64,000 bases of DNA. It comes from Candidatus Poribacteria bacterium. Lineage in GTDB: Bacteria; Poribacteria; WGA-4E; WGA-3G. The stretch lies in NCBI GenBank assembly GCA_965197475.1, contig CBDANF010000002.1:992001-1056000 (forward strand). The letters run 5' to 3'. Under the pieces are notes generated by a model. The model saw only the letters and a list, made by a program, of their open reading frames with translations. It made no database searches and was not told the DNA's origin. Shown here piece by piece: positions 14,153 through 40,824 of the stretch; position 1 is the first letter of the stretch; each line of letters opens with the position of its first letter. Both the position numbers and the translations under genes were made by a program.

Positions 14153-14923
14153 TTATGTGTCCAGAGGCACTACATCAGCATATACATAAGTCGGTGAAAT
14201 GTTACTGCTTGCATGAATTTTGTCATTTTCGTCTTTGGATGCAGAAACAATATCTCTCTGCACTATTCTGCCCGGTTTCGCAGCAACAAGCGAACTAAAC
14301 ATCGGTCCATCAACAACGCATGTATGGAACTCACCGTTTTCGCCGAGTGGGTCCACGCCATCGGGCAAATCTGCAAGGAGTTCTGCATCAAACCATCGTC
14401 CAGCAAAGTCTGCTGGAACTTTAGTAGGATTGAGAGCAGTGATAATCGCGCGCAAACCGGACGCAACCATCTTTTGCGCGAGCAGTGTAGTATCCTCTCC
14501 CCATACCGGAAAAATCGGTGTGAAACCGGTACCGCTAAGTTTCTCTTCTCGGTACGCGCGGATGTCTTCAAGAAATAGATCCTCGAATGCTAAATGTGAA
14601 GCGTTCAGATGTTCAGATAGCACTTCCACCTCAGAGAGAAACTTTCGCATCGCTGCTTCATATATTTCGTTAGAACATGGGTACGGAATCGGTATCTCAT
14701 ACAACGGCACACCGAGCCTCTCAGCTTGCTGTTCCAAAACCCATGCAGGAGTGGAATGGATAGAGACACGGTTAAACGTCTTGGTGACGGTGGTAAAGAT
14801 TCCGCGCACATCGTATTTTTCTGGTTGTTGACGTAAAGTGTGAAGGGCCCACGCAGAATCTTTTCCTGAAGACCAGGAGACAAGAACTGGCGTGGACGAT
14901 TTGTTTTTCGTTTCATTTGTCAT
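14153..14923 (-). CDS. PP-loop adenine nucleotide alpha-hydrolase (diphthine-ammonia ligase-like, MJ0570-related)
   Basis: SWSSGKDS and DP.GENGEFHT motifs. Confidence 0.85.
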   Translation of the reverse strand: MTNETKNKSSTPVLVSWSSGKDSAWALHTLRQQPEKYDVRGIFTTVTKTFNRVSIHSTPAWVLEQQAERLGVPLYEIPIPYPCSNEIYEAAMRKFLSEVEVLSEHLNASHLAFEDLFLEDIRAYREEKLSGTGFTPIFPVWGEDTTLLAQKMVASGLRAIITALNPTKVPADFAGRWFDAELLADLPDGVDPLGENGEFHTCVVDGPMFSSLVAAKPGRIVQRDIVSASKDENDKIHASSNISPTYVYADVVPLDT

Positions 14924-14978
14924 AATTGAGATTTTATCTTCTGTGGTAGATTTTATAATTAACGATACATTCTCAATC

Positions 14979-15002
14979 GGCGCGCTTACAAAGCGCGCCT
15001 AC
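14979..15002 (-). repeat. GTAG-type REP-like palindrome (second copy at ~17196-17219)
   Basis: GGCGCGCTTACAAAGCGCGCCTAC present downstream of trpG and of hisI. Confidence 0.65.
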
Positions 15003-15019
15003 CAGCAGGGACAGGTGTT

Positions 15020-15583
15020 TTATAGTGCCAAAAAGTTCCCTAATAGACTCTTTCCAGCAGCTGTCAAAATTGACTCCGGATGAAACTGAACACCCCAGAT
15101 AGGCAAGGTTTTGTGTCGTAGTCCCATGATTTCGTCCTGATCCGTCCATGCCGTGATTTCAAAGCAATCTGGCAGTGTTTCTTTTTTTACGATGAGTGAA
15201 TGATAGCGTGTCGCTTCAAAAGGATTATCCAAACCCTCGAAAAGTTCAGTGCCATTGTGCAGTATCATTGAGGTTTTGCCGTGCATCAACCGCTCCGCGC
15301 GAACAACCTCACCACCGAATGCATCACCGATGCACTGATGTCCAAGACAGACCCCTAAAATCGGCACTTTTCCGGCAAAGTGTTTTATCACATCATTGGA
15401 AATCCCCGCCTCTCGTGGCGTGCAGGGACCGGGTGAAATGACGACTCGTTCCGGTGCCAGCGTGTCTAATTCTTCTATACCTATCTTTCGACTCCGATGA
15501 ACCTCCAATTCCGCACCGAGTTCACCAAAATACTGCACGAGATTGTAAGTAAATGAGTCGTAGTTGTCAATCATCAAAACCAT
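15020..15583 (-). CDS. trpG: anthranilate synthase component II (glutamine amidotransferase)
   Basis: [26 protein letters not shown] and QFHPES motifs; follows trpE. Confidence 0.9.
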
Positions 15584-15594
15584 CTTTTTGCCTC

Positions 15595-17097
15595 CTATAA
15601 TAGTAGACCTTGTTCCGCCATTTCAATAGCACTGAGTAGTGCCCGTGCCTTATTCATGGTTTCATAATACTCATTTTCTGGCACAGAATCTGCCACAACA
15701 CCGCCACCCGCCTGTACATAGGCAACACCATCTTTGATCACCGCAGTTCGTATCGTAATTGCTGTGTCCGCGCTACCGGAAAAACTGAAATAACCGACTG
15801 TACCACCATAAGTGCCTCGACGTGTCGGTTCCAGTTCGTCAATGATCTCCATTGCACGAATTTTAGGTGCTCCAGAGAGTGTACCTGCGGGAAGGCACGC
15901 ACGGATGACATCAAATGCACTAAGATTGTCACGCAGCCTCCCAATAACATGTGAGACAATGTGCATCACATGCGAAAACCGTTCCACTATCATCAGATCG
16001 GTTACCTCAACGGTATGATATTCACACACACGCCCCAGGTCATTTCGTCCTAAATCAACAAGCATGACGTGTTCTGCGCGTTCCTTCGGATCAGCGAGAA
16101 GTTTCTGTTCCAGTTCGCGATCCTCCGCATCGGTTTTGCCACGTGGGAGCGTTCCAGCAATAGGGCGCGTCTGAACAAGTCCATCTTCCACACGCACCAT
16201 CATTTCTGGCGATGCACCGACAATGTCAAAACCACCACACTTTAAGTAATACATATAAGGCGATGGATTCACCACCCGTAATGCCCGATAAACATCAAAC
16301 GAGTCAACGGATACCGGACGACTGAACCGCTGCGAAGGCACAACCTGTATAATGTCGCCCGCTGCAATGTATTCTTTGGCGCGCCGCACCGCGTCTTTGT
16401 AAGCTGGTTTCGTGAAATTCGATTGTGGGTCGGGTAGGGATTTTTGGTGGTTTTTTGTAGAATTTTCCCTATGCTTGAATGAGGTATTTTCAGAAGCGGC
16501 CGTTAATTTTGCAACTAACGTATCAATTTTCCCAACAGCATAAGCATAAGCTGCATCCACATCTCCATCAATATGTGCATTTGCCACAACCTTAATCTGA
16601 TGATTTACATGATCGAATATCAGTATTGTTTCGGCAATCATAAAAAAGCAATCGGGCAGCTGCAGTTCGTCTTCGGTATCATCAGGTAATTCTTCCACAA
16701 AACGCACCATATCGTAGCTCATATAGCCGACTGCACCACCGTGGAACTGTGGTAATCCTTCAATGTTGACAGGTTGGTAATTCTGCATTAATTCTTCCAG
16801 AGCTTTGAACGGATCTTCGTATTCCTTAGATACCTTTTCACCCTTTGCCAAATACTCAATGGTAACCTGGTGCCCTTTACTCTGAAAAAGCACGGATGGC
16901 TGACTTCCCAAAAATGAGTAGCGTGCAACTTTTTCACCGCCTTCAACGCTCTCCAGTAAGAAAGCAAAATTATCAGGCATCAATTTGTAAAAGGCGGACA
17001 CCGGTGTCTCCATATCTGCCAAAATCGGTCGATAGACCGGTATCGTGTTACCTGTTTTCGCTTTTTCCTTAAATTCTTCCAACGTCGGATAATACAT
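15595..17097 (-). CDS. trpE: anthranilate synthase component I
   Basis: [28 protein letters not shown] and GTLSGAPK motifs. Confidence 0.93.
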
Positions 17098-33684: not shown

Positions 33685-34597
33685 TTAATTATCAAACAAA
33701 GTAGGCTGCATCGCCTTCCCCGTCCACGGGTTGGTGAGCGAAGGCAACGTCAATATTGGTCTCCACTTCTCACCGTGCTTGTAGTATTCCTCAATAGAAA
33801 AACACTGGATCGACTCATAACTGCTTTCACCGATGCGTACTGGATCCAAATCGTGCCGCCACCGATGTGAAGGTTGTGTAGTCAGTGTGATAAGAATACC
33901 AATCGCTGCGCTGTGCTTACGGATAGTGTTTTGTAACCGATCATATTTAGCGTATTGCGCGCCTGTTGCACCGGTGACCTGCACGACAATGCCTTTCTTG
34001 TCCATGTTATCGGGTTTATTGAGTAGCATACCGAACCCATCTATACCGTCATCACCAACTTTCTGCGGGTTCGCAGCCAAGCCATCTATCAGCGATAACG
34101 CCCAGTCTTGAAATTTGAAATGGTCAGATTTGGCGAGTTCGGTTGCGGTTTGCATGTCAACAGGAATACCATACACCGGCATCTTCGTTACGAGTCGATG
34201 CTGGTTAATCAACCGCAACGCGAAGGGAAGAATGTCAATACCGATTGCACTACGATTGTTATTCCGAGCTGCCGCAATTGTGGTGCCACATCCGCAGAAC
34301 GGGTCCAAAACGAGGTCGTCAACGTTACTGGACGCTCTGATAATCCGTTCGTAGAGAGATACTGGTTTTTGTGTTGGGTAGCCGAGATTCTCGTTTTTAT
34401 AGTGTTTTATGGGGTAGATATCACTCCACCAATCTTCAGGAATTTTGCCTCCACTCGGATGCATTTTTCTACTATTGAATTCCATTCCACCCGAAGGCTT
34501 TCCTCCATATTTACTTCTTTCTACGGTTGATTCCGCGTATGGAATACGGATTTCGTCACAGTTAAATATAGGATTGTCCTTCCCATAAAATAATAAT
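33685..34597 (-). pseudogene. N6/N4 DNA methyltransferase (beta class) with C-terminal Mrr-like domain; 5' part lost at the IS
   Basis: GYPTQKP..L.ERII, VLDPFCGCGTT and D.GIDG motifs; DPPY/F part missing; extra frameshift near 34500. Confidence 0.8.
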
Positions 34598-35581
34598 GGC
34601 TCATGTTATGAGTGAGTGCGTTGGACGAGTCGTGATATAAACTCAGTAGTAATAGATTTGAGATTAATAACAAATTCACAGATAGCGATATATCCCGAAA
34701 GGAACTTTTTATGAACACCGCGAAATGGGCGGAGAAAGTTACGAACCGTTGTCCACACACCTTCAATCGTGTTGATGTGGATTTCAAAAATACCATCCGC
34801 ATCGTCATCCCTCGCCCATTCGCCATCACCATGACACACGCTCGCATGAGAACGATCAATACGATTATAGCCTCGCCATCCATCTGTATATACAGTAGCA
34901 GTGGGGAGCGTGAACTGATGCACGTGTGATGAGAGTGTAGCACTATCGGTATGATGTGCCACACGCAATCGGACACGCTTACTTTTGCGCCCGATCGTGC
35001 CGACTATAGGTGGACGATCATTCGCATAAGTGCCATGACCTCTGCGTTTATTACCACGCCGACGCGGTGGATCCTTCAGGTCTTTATGCGGTTCTCCTTT
35101 TTCACCTGCGTTTTGAAACATCTCATCTGTTTCTGTTGCAGTGTCCAGCAAAGCTACCTCAGGTTGCATCATCTCGGCAGATGCCGAAGCACACGCCGTA
35201 TGGAAAGCACCGCTTGACGACTGATATTGAGTTCGCGTGCCAATTGAGCGGAAGAAAAACCTTTGCAAACACCTTGCAAAAGCAGAACTACCTGTGAAGG
35301 ACGATACTGTTTTTGAGCAAACACTGTCCCACTATAGAGGTTATATACACCCTTACATACTTTACAGCGGTAAACCTTTATGCGACTTGTTTTTGTTGTT
35401 CTAAAATAGCGTGCCTCCGCCACGCTCACATCGCAATGTGGACAGTGTAAACCCTGGGGATGGAAATGGTTTAGCAACCATTCCGCCGCGCGTTCGTCAT
35501 CAATTAAAGAAAGTATTGGAAAATCCATATGCTATACTATAGCAGAAAGAAAGAAAAAAGCACTTGCTTTTTACATGAGCC
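34598..35581 (-). mobile_element. IS1595 family element, second copy, frameshifted transposase, no TSD
   Basis: near-identical to 10362-11346; 1-bp deletion (CTTCAGGC to CTTCGGC) splits the ORF; flanks ATAATAAT and GAAGTCTT differ. Confidence 0.92.
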
Positions 35582-35808
35582 GAAGTCTTTTGTCCTAAAA
35601 TCTCTACCGTACGTTGACATGTTTTACAAACATTTAACAACTTGGTTTCGTTGATGGATGATAATCTTCGTTCAGCTTGTGCCTTAAGCATTTCCTGATA
35701 TCGAGGTTTAGACAACGAAGAGGGAAGTAATTTTCCGATATATCTAAAGGTTCTTTCCTTATAGCGATCAGGAATTAGGGCTAAAGCAGTGAGTATTTCT
35801 GGGAGCAC
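35582..35808 (-). pseudogene. possible 5' gene fragment truncated by the IS
   Basis: open frame downstream of the operon that runs into the IS end. Confidence 0.35.
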
Positions 35809-35856: not shown

Positions 35857-36795
35857 CTAATATTCACGTTGTTCTTTGAAGGCTCGGTGCAGGAAATACA
35901 CTGTAGAGATGCCGAGACCGATGAGGATAAAAAGCAGAACAATGGCAGTACCGAGGCGACTCTTTGACTCACTGTCATCTTGGGTTTCAGGTTTGGGTGC
36001 TTCAGGCGTTGTTGTTTTTATTGGGGGTGTTGGTTTGCGAGGTGTAGGTGCAGGGATTGTTACTCTTTCTGGTTTTGATACGGTTCCTATTTTCTGGGGT
36101 GCTAAAGGGATGATGTCCGCCACGGTTACGCCAAAGGATGTTGGTAGGTCGCCAACTGTCCAACCTGTGCCAGTAGTTTCACAGTAGTAATATTTCGTGC
36201 CATTGTAGGTGACTGAGACACCATTGAAGTTACCGCTGACTCCCAGTGCTATGTGCCCGGGCATGAAGATGAGTGCTGTCTTCTCACCTAATCCTTGTAG
36301 GATGGCAGCAACTAAAATAGTGGTGTCTTCGCAATCGCCGCCGCCGTCAATCAATGTTTCAATGGCGTAACGGCGAAACTCATCGTAACCTGTGGTCACG
36401 TCATCGAGGGTATATGGCAAAGATTGGACGAAACTCAGAACAAAGTCGATACGATCCGGTTTTGACCATTCACTGTGCCGTTTGAAGATGTTCTGAAATT
36501 CGCGTGTAAGGTTTCCAATCGTTGTTCTTCCCTCTTCAACTAACTGCGGAATATCATAGCGCTCTTTACCATCGTAGGAATTATATTTTTCGATGTCGAT
36601 TGTCATTAGCGCTGTATAGGATTTTCCTTTAAAATTCCAGACGTACCGTTTCCCGATTGTCTGTCTGGTATTCGGAGGACGCTGTTGGACAATTCCGTCT
36701 ATGATTCGGACATAGTTAAGTGCATCTTGCGCATCACTATTTGGAGTTATAAGTAGGCTGCCCAGAAGTAGAGTGATAAACAGTCTAATGTACAT
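35857..36795 (-). CDS. exported transglutaminase-like (Cys-His-Glu/Asp) protein with C-terminal TM anchor
   Basis: signal peptide, FVQSLPY, GDCED, GHIALG and YY.ETT motifs, Pro-rich linker, C-terminal TM. Confidence 0.8.
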   Translation of the reverse strand: MYIRLFITLLLGSLLITPNSDAQDALNYVRIIDGIVQQRPPNTRQTIGKRYVWNFKGKSYTALMTIDIEKYNSYDGKERYDIPQLVEEGRTTIGNLTREFQNIFKRHSEWSKPDRIDFVLSFVQSLPYTLDDVTTGYDEFRRYAIETLIDGGGDCEDTTILVAAILQGLGEKTALIFMPGHIALGVSGNFNGVSVTYNGTKYYYCETTGTGWTVGDLPTSFGVTVADIIPLAPQKIGTVSKPERVTIPAPTPRKPTPPIKTTTPEAPKPETQDDSESKSRLGTAIVLLFILIGLGISTVYFLHRAFKEQREY

Positions 36796-36801
36796 AATGA
36801 A

Positions 36802-37536
36802 CTATCCTTCTGTTAGGGTCGTCTGTTCAGAGGGATAAATTAGTAGAATCTCAATGCGACGATTTTTGGCTTTTAACTGTCTGGTTTTATTGTGCGCTTT
36901 GAGTTTCTCTGGTGTATATGTGCTATCTCGAACTGAACGTTGAACAGGTTTATACTCACCGAAAGAGGTTGCTGACATCAGATGCCTTGCTGGGTCTATT
37001 CTAATCTCGTGTTGGAGAAATCTAAATACTTCAATTGCACGTAATGCTGCAAGATGTAGATTAGAACGTTCAATACCAGGAGTGTCAGGATCTGCATGTC
37101 CTTGAATTTGTATTTCGCTGAAGTTTTGCAGATTTTTTTTAATTTGACGACCTACAATCAGAAGTGTTTTCTTCCCTTCTTCGTTGAGAGCATATCTATC
37201 TGGTTTAAACAAGATGCGGTCACTAAAACTGTAACGTTGCAGCGTTGCTTCGTTTTTTATCTCAATTTTCGCGTTACCCCCATTTTCAAGTGAGATCACA
37301 AAAGTATCGGTCTCGGTCTCTTTCGGTTTCGGTTTAACATCGTACTGTTTAGCGATAGCGCGGATCATCGCCATCTGGTTTTCTTTTACTTTTGAGGGAA
37401 TAATATCTCCATTAGGATCAGGTACAGAAAAGGAAGCGATAACTGCAAACACTACAATGACTAATATCAAAACAAGTGTCAGCATCAAGTCTGAAAAGGA
37501 CGGCCAGAAATTGAAATCTAATGTATTTTCTTCCAT
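36802..37536 (-). CDS. ZorB/MotB-like OmpA-domain stator subunit
   Basis: FWPSFSDLM TM with the conserved Asp; LF, GHAD, N..L...RA and NRRIEI OmpA-C motifs. Confidence 0.88.
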   Translation of the reverse strand: MEENTLDFNFWPSFSDLMLTLVLILVIVVFAVIASFSVPDPNGDIIPSKVKENQMAMIRAIAKQYDVKPKPKETETDTFVISLENGGNAKIEIKNEATLQRYSFSDRILFKPDRYALNEEGKKTLLIVGRQIKKNLQNFSEIQIQGHADPDTPGIERSNLHLAALRAIEVFRFLQHEIRIDPARHLMSATSFGEYKPVQRSVRDSTYTPEKLKAHNKTRQLKAKNRRIEILLIYPSEQTTLTEG

Positions 37537-37610
37537 GGGTGTTCTTCGGTTTATTTTGTGGTTGATGATATCTGAAACAGATAATGGATCAAGTATTAGA
37601 ACAGACTGTG

Positions 37611-39752
37611 CTACTTTCCGTCGTTGTTAGTTTGAGATTCGGATGTGGTCTGTTCAGGAGGTTTTTTTCGCGAGAATTTATTCCAAATTTTACCTACAAT
37701 TGATCCCTTCTGCTTCCGTTTGGATCCAGATGAGCTTTCCTGCTTTCCCAGTGTATTGACAGCATTCGCTAAGGTTTTAGAATGCTGGGAAATCTCGTTT
37801 ATAGAGGTATTGAGTTTTTCTATACTTGCTGTTAGAGGGGTAACATCGGCTTTATCTACTTTTTCCACGAATTGTTGTGAGGCTGTGCCTAACGTTTTAA
37901 CATGTCCCTCAATTGTTGCGATGGACTGGCTGAGCATCCCTGAATCTGATGTAAAGGTTTTGATTGCACTATCAAGGTTGTTTATGTCGTCGGTCAGACC
38001 ACCGACACTAGTACTCAGTTCATTAACAGCATTTTGTTGATTTTTACTGCTCTCGTCTAATTGGTTTAATAAAGTTACAATCTTTTGATTTAGATCCTTG
38101 ACTCCGTTAAGTTGTTCCTCGTATTTTTCATTCTGTTCTCTTATTTCTTTCTGCAGATCTCCAACAATATTTTGCATATATCTAACTAAATCTGCAAAAG
38201 TGCCTCTCATATGTTCTGCTGCATCTTGGAGTGGTTCATCAAAGTTCTCTAAACGATTGTTTAGGGTTTCTAATTCAGCGACAAGAGTACCTAATTGGTC
38301 ATTTAGTGTTTGTTGAACATGTCCGAGTTCTGTTTTCAACTGATCTTGCATATCTGAAAACTGCTGTTTGTTAGCATTATTTATTCCTTCAAACCACTCT
38401 CGGTTCTCTGTATATATACTTGTATTTGTCTCTGTTGCCTTATTTATAAATTCTTGTAGTTCAGTACTAATTTCTTGGTGTGAATTGATATAGGTAGTCT
38501 CATAACTTTTTAGTGCATTTAAAGTATGGTCAATAACCTCAATGACATTTGAAATGTTTTGATTCTGATCATCTAACTTTTCCGTTTGTAAGTCTAATTT
38601 CTGGTTCGCTGCATCTTGAAATTGTTCGTGGAGGTTGCGAATCTCATCTTGAAAACCGGTGAGTTGGGTAACACTTGATGAAAATTCTTTTGAAAACTTA
38701 TCCAGGCTTGCCGTGAAGCCTGTATTTAACACATCAGCAGCAGTACTAATGTCCGATGCTGCTTTATTAATTTGCGTCACTGAATCTGATAGTGGTTGTG
38801 TAATAGCAATAGCCTGCGTTAGACTCTCGTTGAATTCATCTATATTGCCATGCACTTTTTGGACTGATTCACTAAACTGTGCTGCAGTCTCAAATCCTTT
38901 TTGCATCTGAGATTCGCTTTTCTGAAGCGTTTGCATGAGTTTTTGTGAAGTGGTCGGATAGAGTTGGGGTACCCAGACGGTGAGCGTCAATCGCTCCAGA
39001 GTGGATTTAACAGGGTGACATGCGGATTGCAAATAGATGCCGTAAAGAATAACGCCCAAAATAGTGAAAAAGATCCCACTAATGCTCGGTGCAAGAGCAC
39101 CTTTCATCTTTTCAAGAAGGACCCCCAACGCCTGGGTCATCTTTTCGTTATTTTCTGCGGAGTCTTTGTTTACTGCACCCCCTTCCAAATCGTTATTTTC
39201 TGTGGAGATTTCGTTTGCTGCACGCTCCTTCAAAGGTGGAAAAAGTTCTGTTATACTGTCGGCGAGTCCGAAGAGCGTCCCAAATAGTCCAATCACGATA
39301 AAAACTGCCAACATAGAACGAAAAAGGTTGTTCCATTTAAATAGGTCAGCTGTGGTGTGATTAATTAACTCACCGACTTCAAGACGGGTTTCATCGCAAC
39401 CCGCTAAGAAAATGGCTTTGAGATGTTTTGCTATCGGAGAACGTCTGTTAAGGCTGCTTTCCTTGCAAAATTCGCTAAACACATTTTCAGGATCAGCTTT
39501 TTGGTCGTCATCTTCATGTCCACGATCCTGTTCATGTCCACGATCCTGTTCATGTCGGGCAGTAACGAGCGGTTGAATATTCTTACAGTTTTCGATTTGT
39601 ATCCGTTCTGTCCGCAACCAACGCCAATATCTGATGAGTCCGATAAGCCAAACGGAAAAGAAACCTATCAAGAATGTTATAATACCTATAGCGATTGGAT
39701 TTGCAGGAAATAGGTATTCGGTAAAGAATGACGGCATAAGTGTTACATCCAC
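37611..39752 (-). CDS. ZorA-like MotA/TolQ/ExbB channel subunit with ~400-aa coiled-coil tail
   Basis: 3 TM segments with IGLFGT and A...SI.G motifs followed by a long heptad-rich tail; precedes the OmpA gene. Confidence 0.8.
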   Translation of the reverse strand: MDVTLMPSFFTEYLFPANPIAIGIITFLIGFFSVWLIGLIRYWRWLRTERIQIENCKNIQPLVTARHEQDRGHEQDRGHEDDDQKADPENVFSEFCKESSLNRRSPIAKHLKAIFLAGCDETRLEVGELINHTTADLFKWNNLFRSMLAVFIVIGLFGTLFGLADSITELFPPLKERAANEISTENNDLEGGAVNKDSAENNEKMTQALGVLLEKMKGALAPSISGIFFTILGVILYGIYLQSACHPVKSTLERLTLTVWVPQLYPTTSQKLMQTLQKSESQMQKGFETAAQFSESVQKVHGNIDEFNESLTQAIAITQPLSDSVTQINKAASDISTAADVLNTGFTASLDKFSKEFSSSVTQLTGFQDEIRNLHEQFQDAANQKLDLQTEKLDDQNQNISNVIEVIDHTLNALKSYETTYINSHQEISTELQEFINKATETNTSIYTENREWFEGINNANKQQFSDMQDQLKTELGHVQQTLNDQLGTLVAELETLNNRLENFDEPLQDAAEHMRGTFADLVRYMQNIVGDLQKEIREQNEKYEEQLNGVKDLNQKIVTLLNQLDESSKNQQNAVNELSTSVGGLTDDINNLDSAIKTFTSDSGMLSQSIATIEGHVKTLGTASQQFVEKVDKADVTPLTASIEKLNTSINEISQHSKTLANAVNTLGKQESSSGSKRKQKGSIVGKIWNKFSRKKPPEQTTSESQTNNDGK

Positions 39753-39813: not shown

Positions 39814-40824
39814 CTATGTCTCCTGTAATTCTAATATTCCTTTTTCCTTAAGTTTCCATGTTTCCTTTGCATCATCTGGTTCAAAGATTGCTGGTTTAAT
39901 AAGTTCCATGATCCGATAATTGCTTCGATCATCAAAATGAGAACAATTAAACACTTCGCCAAAAGCCCCTGGAAAATAGGTGGAACGTACCACTACTAAA
40001 TCATAAACCGGAACAACTGCATATAACATTTCCACTTCAATATATAATGCCAAAAAACAACCTGCAGAGCTAGTTTTGAAAATAGGGTCAATATCCACCT
40101 GTGGCTTTAGGAAACGTTCTTCAGCGTTTACTACATCTAACTTGAAATTTTGCTGATATTTACCAATAAAAATCGTCCATTTTTGTCTATCTTTAATCCC
40201 TGCATTATAACTATCACAAAATTCTATGATTTCCTGTTCCTCTATAGTAGTTTTATTTGTTTCAGAAGTTTCTATTTTATCTGTATGTACTGTGGCACTA
40301 CTGATTGTGGAATTAGCGGTAATTGTTTTGATTTGGTTAAGAATCTTTTGAGTATTCTTTTGAATATCAAGTGTTAATGCTTGATATAAATCATCAGGAT
40401 CAAATGTATCCACAGACGGTTGCACACGTCTATCAACAGCAGACAAGTCTTGCCTTAAATTGCTGTTAACTTTAGCAAGATTTTCTATCCTATATCTTAA
40501 ATCATCCAATCTTTGAGCAAGAGTTCTATATCTGAAAAAGATCCAAATAAGAAAGAATAGCAAAATCATGAGTAAAGGCACGAAAACAACCATAATTACT
40601 GTTGTTTGATCTGCAAATTTTCTATGCTGTTCGTCTAATAAACTGGTAATATCTTGATTGGGCAACGGTACTTGGTTATTATTCTGAGCTTTATGTGTTT
40701 CCTGTGTATCGGATTCAGTATCATTCTGTTGCGCGATCGTAAAAAACGGACAAACAATCAAAACAATCACCATTGTAACGTAGCAAAATATATGATATAA
40801 AGAACTAAGTTTGGTATAACGCAT
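39814..40824 (-). CDS. membrane protein with coiled coil and C-terminal beta domain
   Basis: signal/TM segment, second TM, coiled coil, C-terminal ELIKPA..W.LKEKG.L. Confidence 0.7.
   Translation of the reverse strand: MRYTKLSSLYHIFCYVTMVIVLIVCPFFTIAQQNDTESDTQETHKAQNNNQVPLPNQDITSLLDEQHRKFADQTTVIMVVFVPLLMILLFFLIWIFFRYRTLAQRLDDLRYRIENLAKVNSNLRQDLSAVDRRVQPSVDTFDPDDLYQALTLDIQKNTQKILNQIKTITANSTISSATVHTDKIETSETNKTTIEEQEIIEFCDSYNAGIKDRQKWTIFIGKYQQNFKLDVVNAEERFLKPQVDIDPIFKTSSAGCFLALYIEVEMLYAVVPVYDLVVVRSTYFPGAFGEVFNCSHFDDRSNYRIMELIKPAIFEPDDAKETWKLKEKGILELQET

Follow-up and report, generated by a model that had tools for sequence, protein, structure and literature searches.

A predicted motor pair of ZorAB architecture within a tubulin- and actin-fold gene cassette of Candidatus Poribacteria

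The 64,000-nucleotide stretch of DNA analyzed here (the window) derives from Candidatus Poribacteria bacterium (GenBank assembly GCA_965197475.1, contig CBDANF010000002.1, positions 992,001 to 1,056,000, forward strand) and carries an operon of eight co-directional genes, running from 47398 to 35857 on the minus strand, whose sixth and seventh genes encode a putative ion-motor pair. In order, this cassette comprises genes predicted to encode a von Willebrand factor A (vWA)-like lipoprotein (g1), a small membrane protein (g2), a tubulin-like GTPase (g3), an actin-fold ATPase (g4), a membrane adaptor (g5), motor A (g6) and motor B (g7), followed by a variable last gene (g8). The guanine-cytosine content is 0.36-0.39 over 38-48 kb as compared to 0.42-0.48 for most of the window. 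An earlier note on this DNA had described g6 and g7 as a ZorA/ZorB-like stator pair, and both open reading frames were confirmed on the minus strand at 37611..39752 (g6) and 36802..37536 (g7). Related loci are referred to by number (e.g., L019), and positions elsewhere in the window genome by G000 and contig (C2, C3).

Motor B (244 residues) is predicted to consist of one membrane helix and a periplasmic OmpA-type peptidoglycan-binding domain (Pfam, E 4.6e-11, above the cut-off). The motif FWPSFSDLM, in which the ion-binding aspartate had been recognized previously alongside an OmpA domain, lies at residues 10-18, within a single hydrophobic segment (~9-43). Its Asp16 shows no substitution in the cassette B proteins (29 of 29) or in the wider set of aligned relatives (84 of 84). 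Sequence comparison places Asp16 in register with Asp26 of E. coli ZorB, the role of which is described in PMC11946911. The best profile match in the PDB was type I ZorB (8vvn, E 2.1e-8), with MotB a close second (E 3.6e-8).

Motor A is 713 residues long when read from the GTG, as opposed to the ATG at 39737, whose position corresponds to the start in most homologues. It has three hydrophobic segments, taken as membrane helices, and a helical tail of 449 residues beyond residue 265, slightly longer than the ~400 residues proposed earlier and within the 328-593 residues measured for 49 copies. The motif GLFGT, pointed out in the earlier note, lies at residues 155-159, and among 120 homologues it reads GLFGT in 45 and GLLGT in 75. 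Thr159 of this motif and Ser223 (APS) align by motif register with Thr147 and Ser184 of E. coli ZorA, whose ion-site roles are described in PMC11946911, and neither residue varies in any of 37 cassette A proteins. The tail had also been said to end in a basic amphipathic tip. A net charge of at least +3 together with at least one Phe or Trp was found in the last 30 residues of 48 of 76 non-redundant A proteins and in no mid-tail window (0/76); the mean hydrophobic moment of the tip (0.62) was not higher than that of the mid-tail (0.63). The tip is basic and aromatic, and its amphipathic character is not distinguished from the mid-tail.

The membrane domain of g6 was modeled with AlphaFold 2 (per-residue confidence score, pLDDT, 78.8) and compared to known structures. 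TolQ (Z 12.6, root-mean-square deviation (rmsd) 4.4, 205 aligned residues), ExbB (Z 12.3, rmsd 5.8, 221 residues) and ZorA (8vvn; Z 11.7, rmsd 3.7, 202 residues) were tied, and MotA was not among the 50 rows listed in a wide fold search, which does not exclude it. A single-sequence PDB search with this domain gave no match, and as a profile it retrieved ZorA at only E 0.21 amid many coiled-coil matches. Overall, the motor pair has ZorAB architecture, i.e., a three-helix A subunit with a long tail and an OmpA-type B subunit with an ion-site aspartate, and it is because of this combination that the term Zorya-like applies to it.

Profile scores and phylogeny were used to place the pair relative to Zorya itself. 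NCBIfam models matched it far below their cut-offs (ZorB1, 21 bits vs 400; ZorA_1, 23 vs 190), and PADLOC gave 57 bits for g7 and 41 for g6, as compared to 268 and 176 for the true ZorB and ZorA of the same genome, whose Zorya genes score 176-270. In three trees with sparse sampling, long branches and no Zorya III (the first B tree being a quick search), Zorya I/II formed their own branch without cassette genes (A tree, 99/99; B trees, 97/87 and 95), and the A tree joined the cassette, Zorya and Deinococcus deserti proteins against Mot/Tol/Exb (95/93). The A tree was built without E. coli MotA and Spirosoma ZorA2, in which the motif was not found; six cassette rows were dropped as redundant, and a Prevotella row was trimmed at another motif than the remaining rows. 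Approximately unbiased (AU) tests rejected neither a clade of A with TolQ/ExbB (p 0.066) nor its nesting in Zorya (p 0.11), and a clade with Mot gave p 0.041 with a single MotA row. Clustering of the pair with ExbBD/TolQR, which had been raised as a possible outcome, was not cleanly obtained, though the fold of A is no closer to ZorA than to TolQ/ExbB and the AU test did not reject a clade with the latter. Judged by its sequences, the pair is not Zorya by membership, as it falls outside the Zorya I/II clade and scores far below the family cut-offs, and it appears as a motor lineage distinct from Zorya I/II.

The absence of Zorya effectors and flagellar genes that the earlier note had reported holds for the operon (Pfam, NCBIfam and PADLOC scans). 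When seven effector queries (zorC, zorD, zorE; E <= 1e-4) were run against all open reading frames of loci L006-L104 and L143-L222, the related cassette loci gave 0 matches; among 10 control loci, zorC was recovered in all and zorD in nine, one locus being truncated at a contig end, with no separate control for zorE. Linked zorC, zorD or zorE in relatives, which had been regarded as speaking against the proposal, was seen in none of the loci examined. Neither the window genes nor 58 flanking proteins gave a PADLOC or Pfam match to the type III genes zorF and zorG, and a genome search for DUF3348 returned no match, but its positive control gave none either. Outside the operon, the window genome encodes two Zorya systems on another contig, a complete Zorya I and a Zorya II whose zorE is split, and both come with a zorAB pair of their own. 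The Zorya I system (G000:C3:4131806-4139405; L115:3807-11406) encodes ZorA (673 residues), ZorB (262), ZorC (477) and ZorD (1135), adjoins insertion sequence (IS) elements, and has a ZorB that scores higher with the type II model (268 bits) than with the type I models (198). In Zorya II (L116:3642-6705, on G000:C3), zorA and zorB are intact and zorE lies in two open reading frames. A flagellar stator was rejected, since the 92.7%-complete genome has no match to Flagellin_N or FHIPEP (FlhA family), for which controls were positive, and contains only a lone FliG_C gene (L117:7195-7995, on G000:C2), located directly after purine biosynthesis genes.

The cassette is conserved in 19 genomes, which led us to reject an artefactual origin of the pair. 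Of 151 genomes in the phylum, 21 matched the A membrane domain, 20 of them strongly and all in one family, and within one genus the cassette is patchy (12/38 genomes). All 19 Poribacteria loci that were fetched have the order g1-g8 (18 complete, one cut by a contig end), occupy several different insertion sites and include genes split or broken by insertions. The order g1-g7 recurs in Poribacteria, KSB1, Acidobacteriota and Negativicutes. In a tubulin-anchored GTDB scan, 137 relatives were confirmed and 80 kept, of which 60 had enough downstream DNA; its Poribacteria loci overlap those fetched separately. Of these 60, 40 had g4 and 20 lacked it; the motor was found in 33 of the former and in none of the latter. 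Outside Poribacteria, 22 of 42 loci had g4, and 15 of these also had the motor (KSB1, Acidobacteriota, a Clostridia metagenome-assembled genome and Mitsuokella jalaludinii). A B-anchored metagenome scan gave a similar picture from the other side: 80 of 102 loci were kept, 42 had at least 9 kb of upstream sequence, and g3 and g4 were present in 38 of these 42 (25 of 29 clusters at 90% identity), which makes the tubulin and actin genes constant neighbours of the pair, in line with the earlier note. Two of the four exceptions have A and B beside vWA, PP2C and kinase genes, two lie beside another neighbourhood, and the B proteins of all four fall within the same family in the B tree. In the former two (L164:10691-18746, L187:10708-19986), vWA, PP2C phosphatase and Ser/Thr kinase genes replace tubulin and actin, a set that we presume to resemble a TerY-P-like triad; the B protein of the short locus L157 groups with them. 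A search of 1.84 billion representatives with the B profile gave 186 clusters at 50% identity (E <= 1e-30). Viral contigs yielded no relatives of g3 or g7, a plasmid search with g7 returned only generic MotB/OmpA proteins, and plasmid copies of the core exist.

The NTPase genes at the center of the cassette were characterized by motif and profile. The predicted tubulin/FtsZ-like GTPase g3 (44033..45472, minus strand; 479 residues) has GIGGTG at residue 7 and GGTGASG at 180, matches Pfam Tubulin_2 (PF13809, E 9.8e-10, above the cut-off) over residues 163-241 only, and keeps its motifs in 15 aligned copies of 476-504 residues. The window genome contains two FtsZ_C matches elsewhere (G000:C2:688198-688488 and C3:2028417-2028707), one of them in a 1435-residue open frame, and L011 has a second Tubulin_2 protein of 975 residues, the classical FtsZl1 size, just downstream of its cassette (14159-17086). 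The predicted actin/Hsp70-fold ATPase g4 (40845..43847, minus strand; 1000 residues) has the fold in its C-terminal half, preceded by ~450 N-terminal residues, with DFGT at 479, DIGG at 681 and GGNG at 817 invariant or nearly so; a profile of 35 homologues matched MreB (E 3.7e-6), an actin-family protein and FtsA in the PDB. A fold predicted for g4 without an alignment (pLDDT 33) was discarded, and a complex prediction of its ATPase half with the C-terminal domain of g5 scored 0.00, which is evidence neither way. The predicted membrane-anchored adaptor g5 (39814..40824, minus strand; 336 residues) has two N-terminal hydrophobic segments, a linker and a conserved C-terminal domain of ~140 residues; it is the fastest-evolving cassette gene (mean pairwise identity of 40% among Poribacteria), with paralogues in L047, L053 and L107.

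Upstream, g1 (45983..47398, minus strand; 471 residues from GTG, likely start ATG 47383) has a lipobox Cys and the set D-x-S-x-S ... T ... TD, which we take to be a metal-ion-dependent adhesion site (MIDAS)-like motif and from which alone the vWA label is assumed. Cys28, Asp62, Ser66, Thr129 and Asp180 (ATG numbering) are invariant in 35 of 35 aligned homologues; g1 has no Pfam or PDB match, and its profile found no vWA structure. The membrane protein g2 (45497..45967, minus strand; 156 residues, 3-4 hydrophobic segments, no family match) accompanies the tubulin gene even at loci without g4-g7. Many Selenomonadaceae loci in the range L062-L104 have this minimal two-gene form (g2 and g3), often after LytR_cpsA_psr and YrbL-like genes. 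A sigma-70-like promoter candidate (47493..47521, minus strand; TTGACA-17-TATTAT with an extended TG) precedes g1 by ~95-110 bp, stands at the operon head and was the joint best of the scan (11/12), such sites not being enriched over shuffled sequence (34 vs 39 +/- 6.8).

The last gene, g8 (35857..36795, minus strand; 312 residues), is predicted to encode a periplasmic transglutaminase-like Cys protein with hydrophobic ends, DCEDT at 154, GHIAL at 180 and CETTG at 205, and gave a weak NCBIfam LapG match far below the cut-off (E 0.013). It is present in 18 of 19 Poribacteria loci, was not found in the non-Poribacteria GTDB loci, and is the last cassette gene in Poribacteria only; an unlinked paralogue forms a ~960-codon frame at G000:C2:495995-498889 (L120). 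This last slot is swappable: 10 loci have a K+-channel-domain protein there, three have vWA, at least two a staphylococcal-type nuclease, L101 has Hsp70 and Poribacteria have the transglutaminase-like protein. The channel-type proteins (L047, L050, L055, L058, L059, L060, L068, L167, L190 and L196) have 490-640 residues and a C-terminal Ion_trans_2 domain. A gene for a predicted lipoprotein of ~200 residues lies between A and B in four Poribacteria loci (L008:10928-11524, L012:11173-11802, L017:8055-8426, L025:15352-15969), and similar genes come after g8 in L014 and L021. Rhs-repeat genes were seen between g2 and g3 in L047 (4827-9959) and just upstream of the cassette in L052 (718-5886).

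Just upstream of the window cassette (48059-50351, plus strand) are a gene for a 204-residue protein and a 627-residue phage terminase large subunit-like gene, near which no other phage genes were seen; a 53% identical terminase-like gene flanks the L020 cassette on the opposite side. Directly downstream (33685-35808) lie a split IS1595/ISXO2 transposase and a partial DNA methylase with a domain resembling an inactive restriction endonuclease.

The 18-bp tandem duplication reported earlier in g6 was refined to 39513-39556 (2.4 copies, 100% match). It codes for HEQDRG x2 at residues 67-78, in a variable loop after helix 1, and occurs in one of 19 aligned Poribacteria A proteins, namely the window copy; no tandem 6-residue duplication was found in the first 140 residues of 120 g6 homologues. 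The duplication is real and private to the window genome. An RNA run (X8) matches the window across it, and X8 may be the source sample. A functional role was rejected, as the duplication is private to one genome and has no sign of function, and it is probably neutral slippage in a variable loop.

Taken together, we favour, with a probability of about 0.45, a reading in which the pair would act as a cell-wall-anchored, ion-driven envelope sensor for a conflict (anti-invader) cassette of eight genes with tubulin, actin and vWA components, nuclease-free and triggered at the envelope. By analogy with Zorya (PMC11946911), five A subunits would surround two B subunits held on the peptidoglycan, and ion flow past Asp16, Thr159 and Ser223 would turn A together with its tail. 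The g1 lipoprotein and the variable last gene product would act outside the inner membrane, with g2 and g5 holding the g3 and g4 NTPases at its inner face. From the architecture and evolutionary pattern, an envelope breach may cause the motor to locally switch on the g3 GTPase and g4 ATPase instead of a nuclease; as a guess, their assembly could nucleate at the breach and block or wall off the invader. The coupling would probably be loose, mediated either by a local ion signal or by the basic tip through generic membrane or charge contacts, as opposed to a lock-and-key tail-effector interface. In favour of the reading are the ZorAB architecture of the pair, its grouping with Zorya and D. deserti in the A tree and its constant tubulin and actin neighbours. 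Conflict-like evolution is suggested by the patchy distribution, several insertion sites, broken copies, fast divergence, block exchange and plasmid copies of the core, and the reading is further supported by the swappable last gene, the Rhs genes in or beside two loci and the re-wiring of the motor to the triad in L164 and L187. In addition, tubulin and Hsp70 homologues have been put forward as components of other conflict systems (PMC7159879). Less probably, the pair would represent a third ZorAB-type rotary-sensor lineage beside Zorya and the flagellar stator, a plug-in switch for cytoskeletal immunity that would respond to an envelope breach by setting off membrane assembly of the tubulin-like GTPase and the giant actin-fold ATPase without any nuclease, and that would be re-pluggable into kinase/phosphatase triads.

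Several observations weigh against the conflict reading. The second B tree joined Zorya with MotB rather than with the cassette family, and no recognizable toxic effector is constant in the cassette. The core g1-g5 also occurs without a motor, in seven Selenomonadales loci (7/40 GTDB loci with g4) and on two cyanobacterial plasmids. The motor is therefore an optional part of the cassette and not essential to the job of the core. Linkage to defence genes is weak, since only seven of the 58 flanking proteins match PADLOC at E <= 1e-12, a count made without a control set and in which four of the seven had been scanned because Pfam had flagged them beforehand; many cassette flanks are housekeeping genes. 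Co-variation was assessed from pairwise identities among 16 complete Poribacteria cassettes, whose kin are not independent and whose narrow identity range limits power: g2, g3, g4 and g5 correlate with one another at 0.67-0.94, as compared to Spearman values of -0.03 to 0.12 for g6 and g7 against this block and 0.03 between g6 and g7. Likewise, L019 is 97-100% identical to the window in g2-g5, as opposed to 66% in g6 and 75% in g7. From this pattern and from L019, tubulin, actin and adaptor appear to form one unit with motor subunits exchanged freely, a pattern that speaks against a specific interface between tail and effector and in favour of a mobile system that recombines. Recruitment of the tubulin or actin-fold protein by the tail, as the earlier note had envisaged, is thus not supported so far.

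Among the alternatives, the best to survive, possible yet less probable than the conflict reading, is a housekeeping-like envelope machine in which tubulin and actin-fold polymers and an ion motor would reshape the inner membrane or hold an adhesin in position at the surface for adhesion, vesicle formation or surface movement; the adhesin would be the g1 lipoprotein, processed by the LapG-like g8. Every constant part of the cassette belongs to the envelope or the cytoskeleton, with no nuclease or toxin among them, the defence-island linkage described above is weak, and Makarova and Koonin proposed membrane remodelling for FtsZl1-vWA-OmpA operons (PMC2875224). RNA runs contained only 5-7% of the sampled words; contigs of three metatranscriptome runs cover pieces of g1-g5 relatives and at most ~80-bp pieces of g6, with expression neither shown nor ranked. 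However, a core machine for shape or motility would not be expected to be so patchy in the genus, mobile and mosaic; two FtsZ_C matches lie elsewhere in the host, and the long tail is a Zorya trait.

An improbable alternative is a Ton/Tol-like energizer, whose motor would drive export or contact delivery of Rhs, other toxins or the lipoprotein, with the NTPases loading cargo. The fold of A, tied between TolQ, ExbB and ZorA, the AU value of 0.066 for its clade with TolQ/ExbB and the Rhs genes of L047 and L052 are consistent with such a function, but Rhs is limited to these two loci, no conserved TonB/TolA-like or outer-membrane channel gene is present in the cassette, and B is OmpA-type. ExbD and TolR, which are 141-142 residues long in E. 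coli, are of a different type. An orphan Zorya sensor working with ZorC/D or ZorE encoded elsewhere, its linkage to tubulin and actin being incidental, is very improbable and was rejected even though the genome has both Zorya systems, as these have their own zorAB, the ZorC domain is found in only six of 20 cassette-carrying genomes (16 of 80 others in the family), the g3/g4 linkage holds across phyla and the PADLOC scores are low.

If the pair is indeed a third rotary-sensor lineage serving cytoskeletal immunity, it would, as far as searched, be the first case of an ion motor linked to a tubulin homologue and an actin homologue at once. A flagellar-type motor can sense phage entry in Zorya (PMC11946911, PMC11890865), and the cassette offers a large natural test of whether such motors drive something besides nucleases. 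Its module swapping warns that the Zorya tail-effector logic may not carry over. A cultured carrier of g1-g7, M. jalaludinii (L101), makes the cassette directly testable. The cassette also offers a way into the Tubulin_2/FtsZl1 operons, for which the 2010 paper did not settle a function (PMC2875224).

In comparison with known systems, the pair shares with Zorya I, II and III a three-helix A subunit, the Thr/Ser ion-site register and a long cytoplasmic tail, as well as a B subunit with a conserved Asp and an OmpA-type domain, the A-then-B gene order and a patchy distribution. Zorya consists of ZorA5B2 plus ZorC/D, ZorE or ZorF/G (PMC11946911, PMC11890865), whereas the cassette has no linked zorC, zorD or zorE and its pair lies downstream of vWA-like lipoprotein, tubulin and actin-fold genes. 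The core residues of a 5:2 ion motor are shared with MotAB and TolQR/ExbBD, B being like MotB and the fold of A like TolQ/ExbB; however, neither system has the long tail or the combination of three-helix A and OmpA-type B.

A tubulin-like gene beside MotA/TolQ/ExbB-like and OmpA/MotB genes, with vWA or membrane genes upstream, also characterizes the FtsZl1 operons listed in 2010, in which a MotA/TolQ/ExbB gene and then an OmpA gene come after FtsZl1 in Deinococcus (DR_0540-0536 type), the cyanobacterial type being vWA-FtsZl1-B7-COG1360 (PMC2875224). The OmpA genes were taken there for beta-barrel-type proteins, and the passages on these operons contain no discussion of a motor. The D. deserti A and B proteins were detected by the cassette profiles (E 2.9e-8 and 8e-11) and lie near the cassette family in the trees, on long branches. 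In contrast, FtsZl1 has ~900-1200 residues with a coiled-coil extension of ~600 and a helical C-terminal domain (D. deserti, ~1070 residues), as compared to the 479 residues of g3 without extension, and hhalign aligned g3 to D. deserti FtsZl1 with only 6% probability over 88 columns. The 1000-residue actin-fold ATPase and the g5 adaptor, constant here, do not appear in those gene neighbourhoods of Deinococcus or cyanobacteria that were consulted in that paper.

A second likeness is to the GTPase-centred conflict systems of Kaur et al. (2020), in whose mobile neighbourhoods tubulin genes occur together with vWA and HSP70 genes, and in some cases with a kinase/PP2C/vWA triad; these systems are proposed to act against invaders by multimeric assembly (PMC7159879). 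The cassette likewise brings together mobile tubulin, vWA and Hsp70-fold genes but has no TRAFAC GTPase or FNIII component that was seen, and MotA, MotB and Zorya do not occur in the main text of that paper. No account of a tubulin, actin-fold and motor cassette was found in the literature, although supplementary or source tables of related papers could list it. The neighbourhood of tubulin, MotA-like and OmpA genes has been known since 2010, and the actin-bearing form described here is a real, conserved new variant of it.

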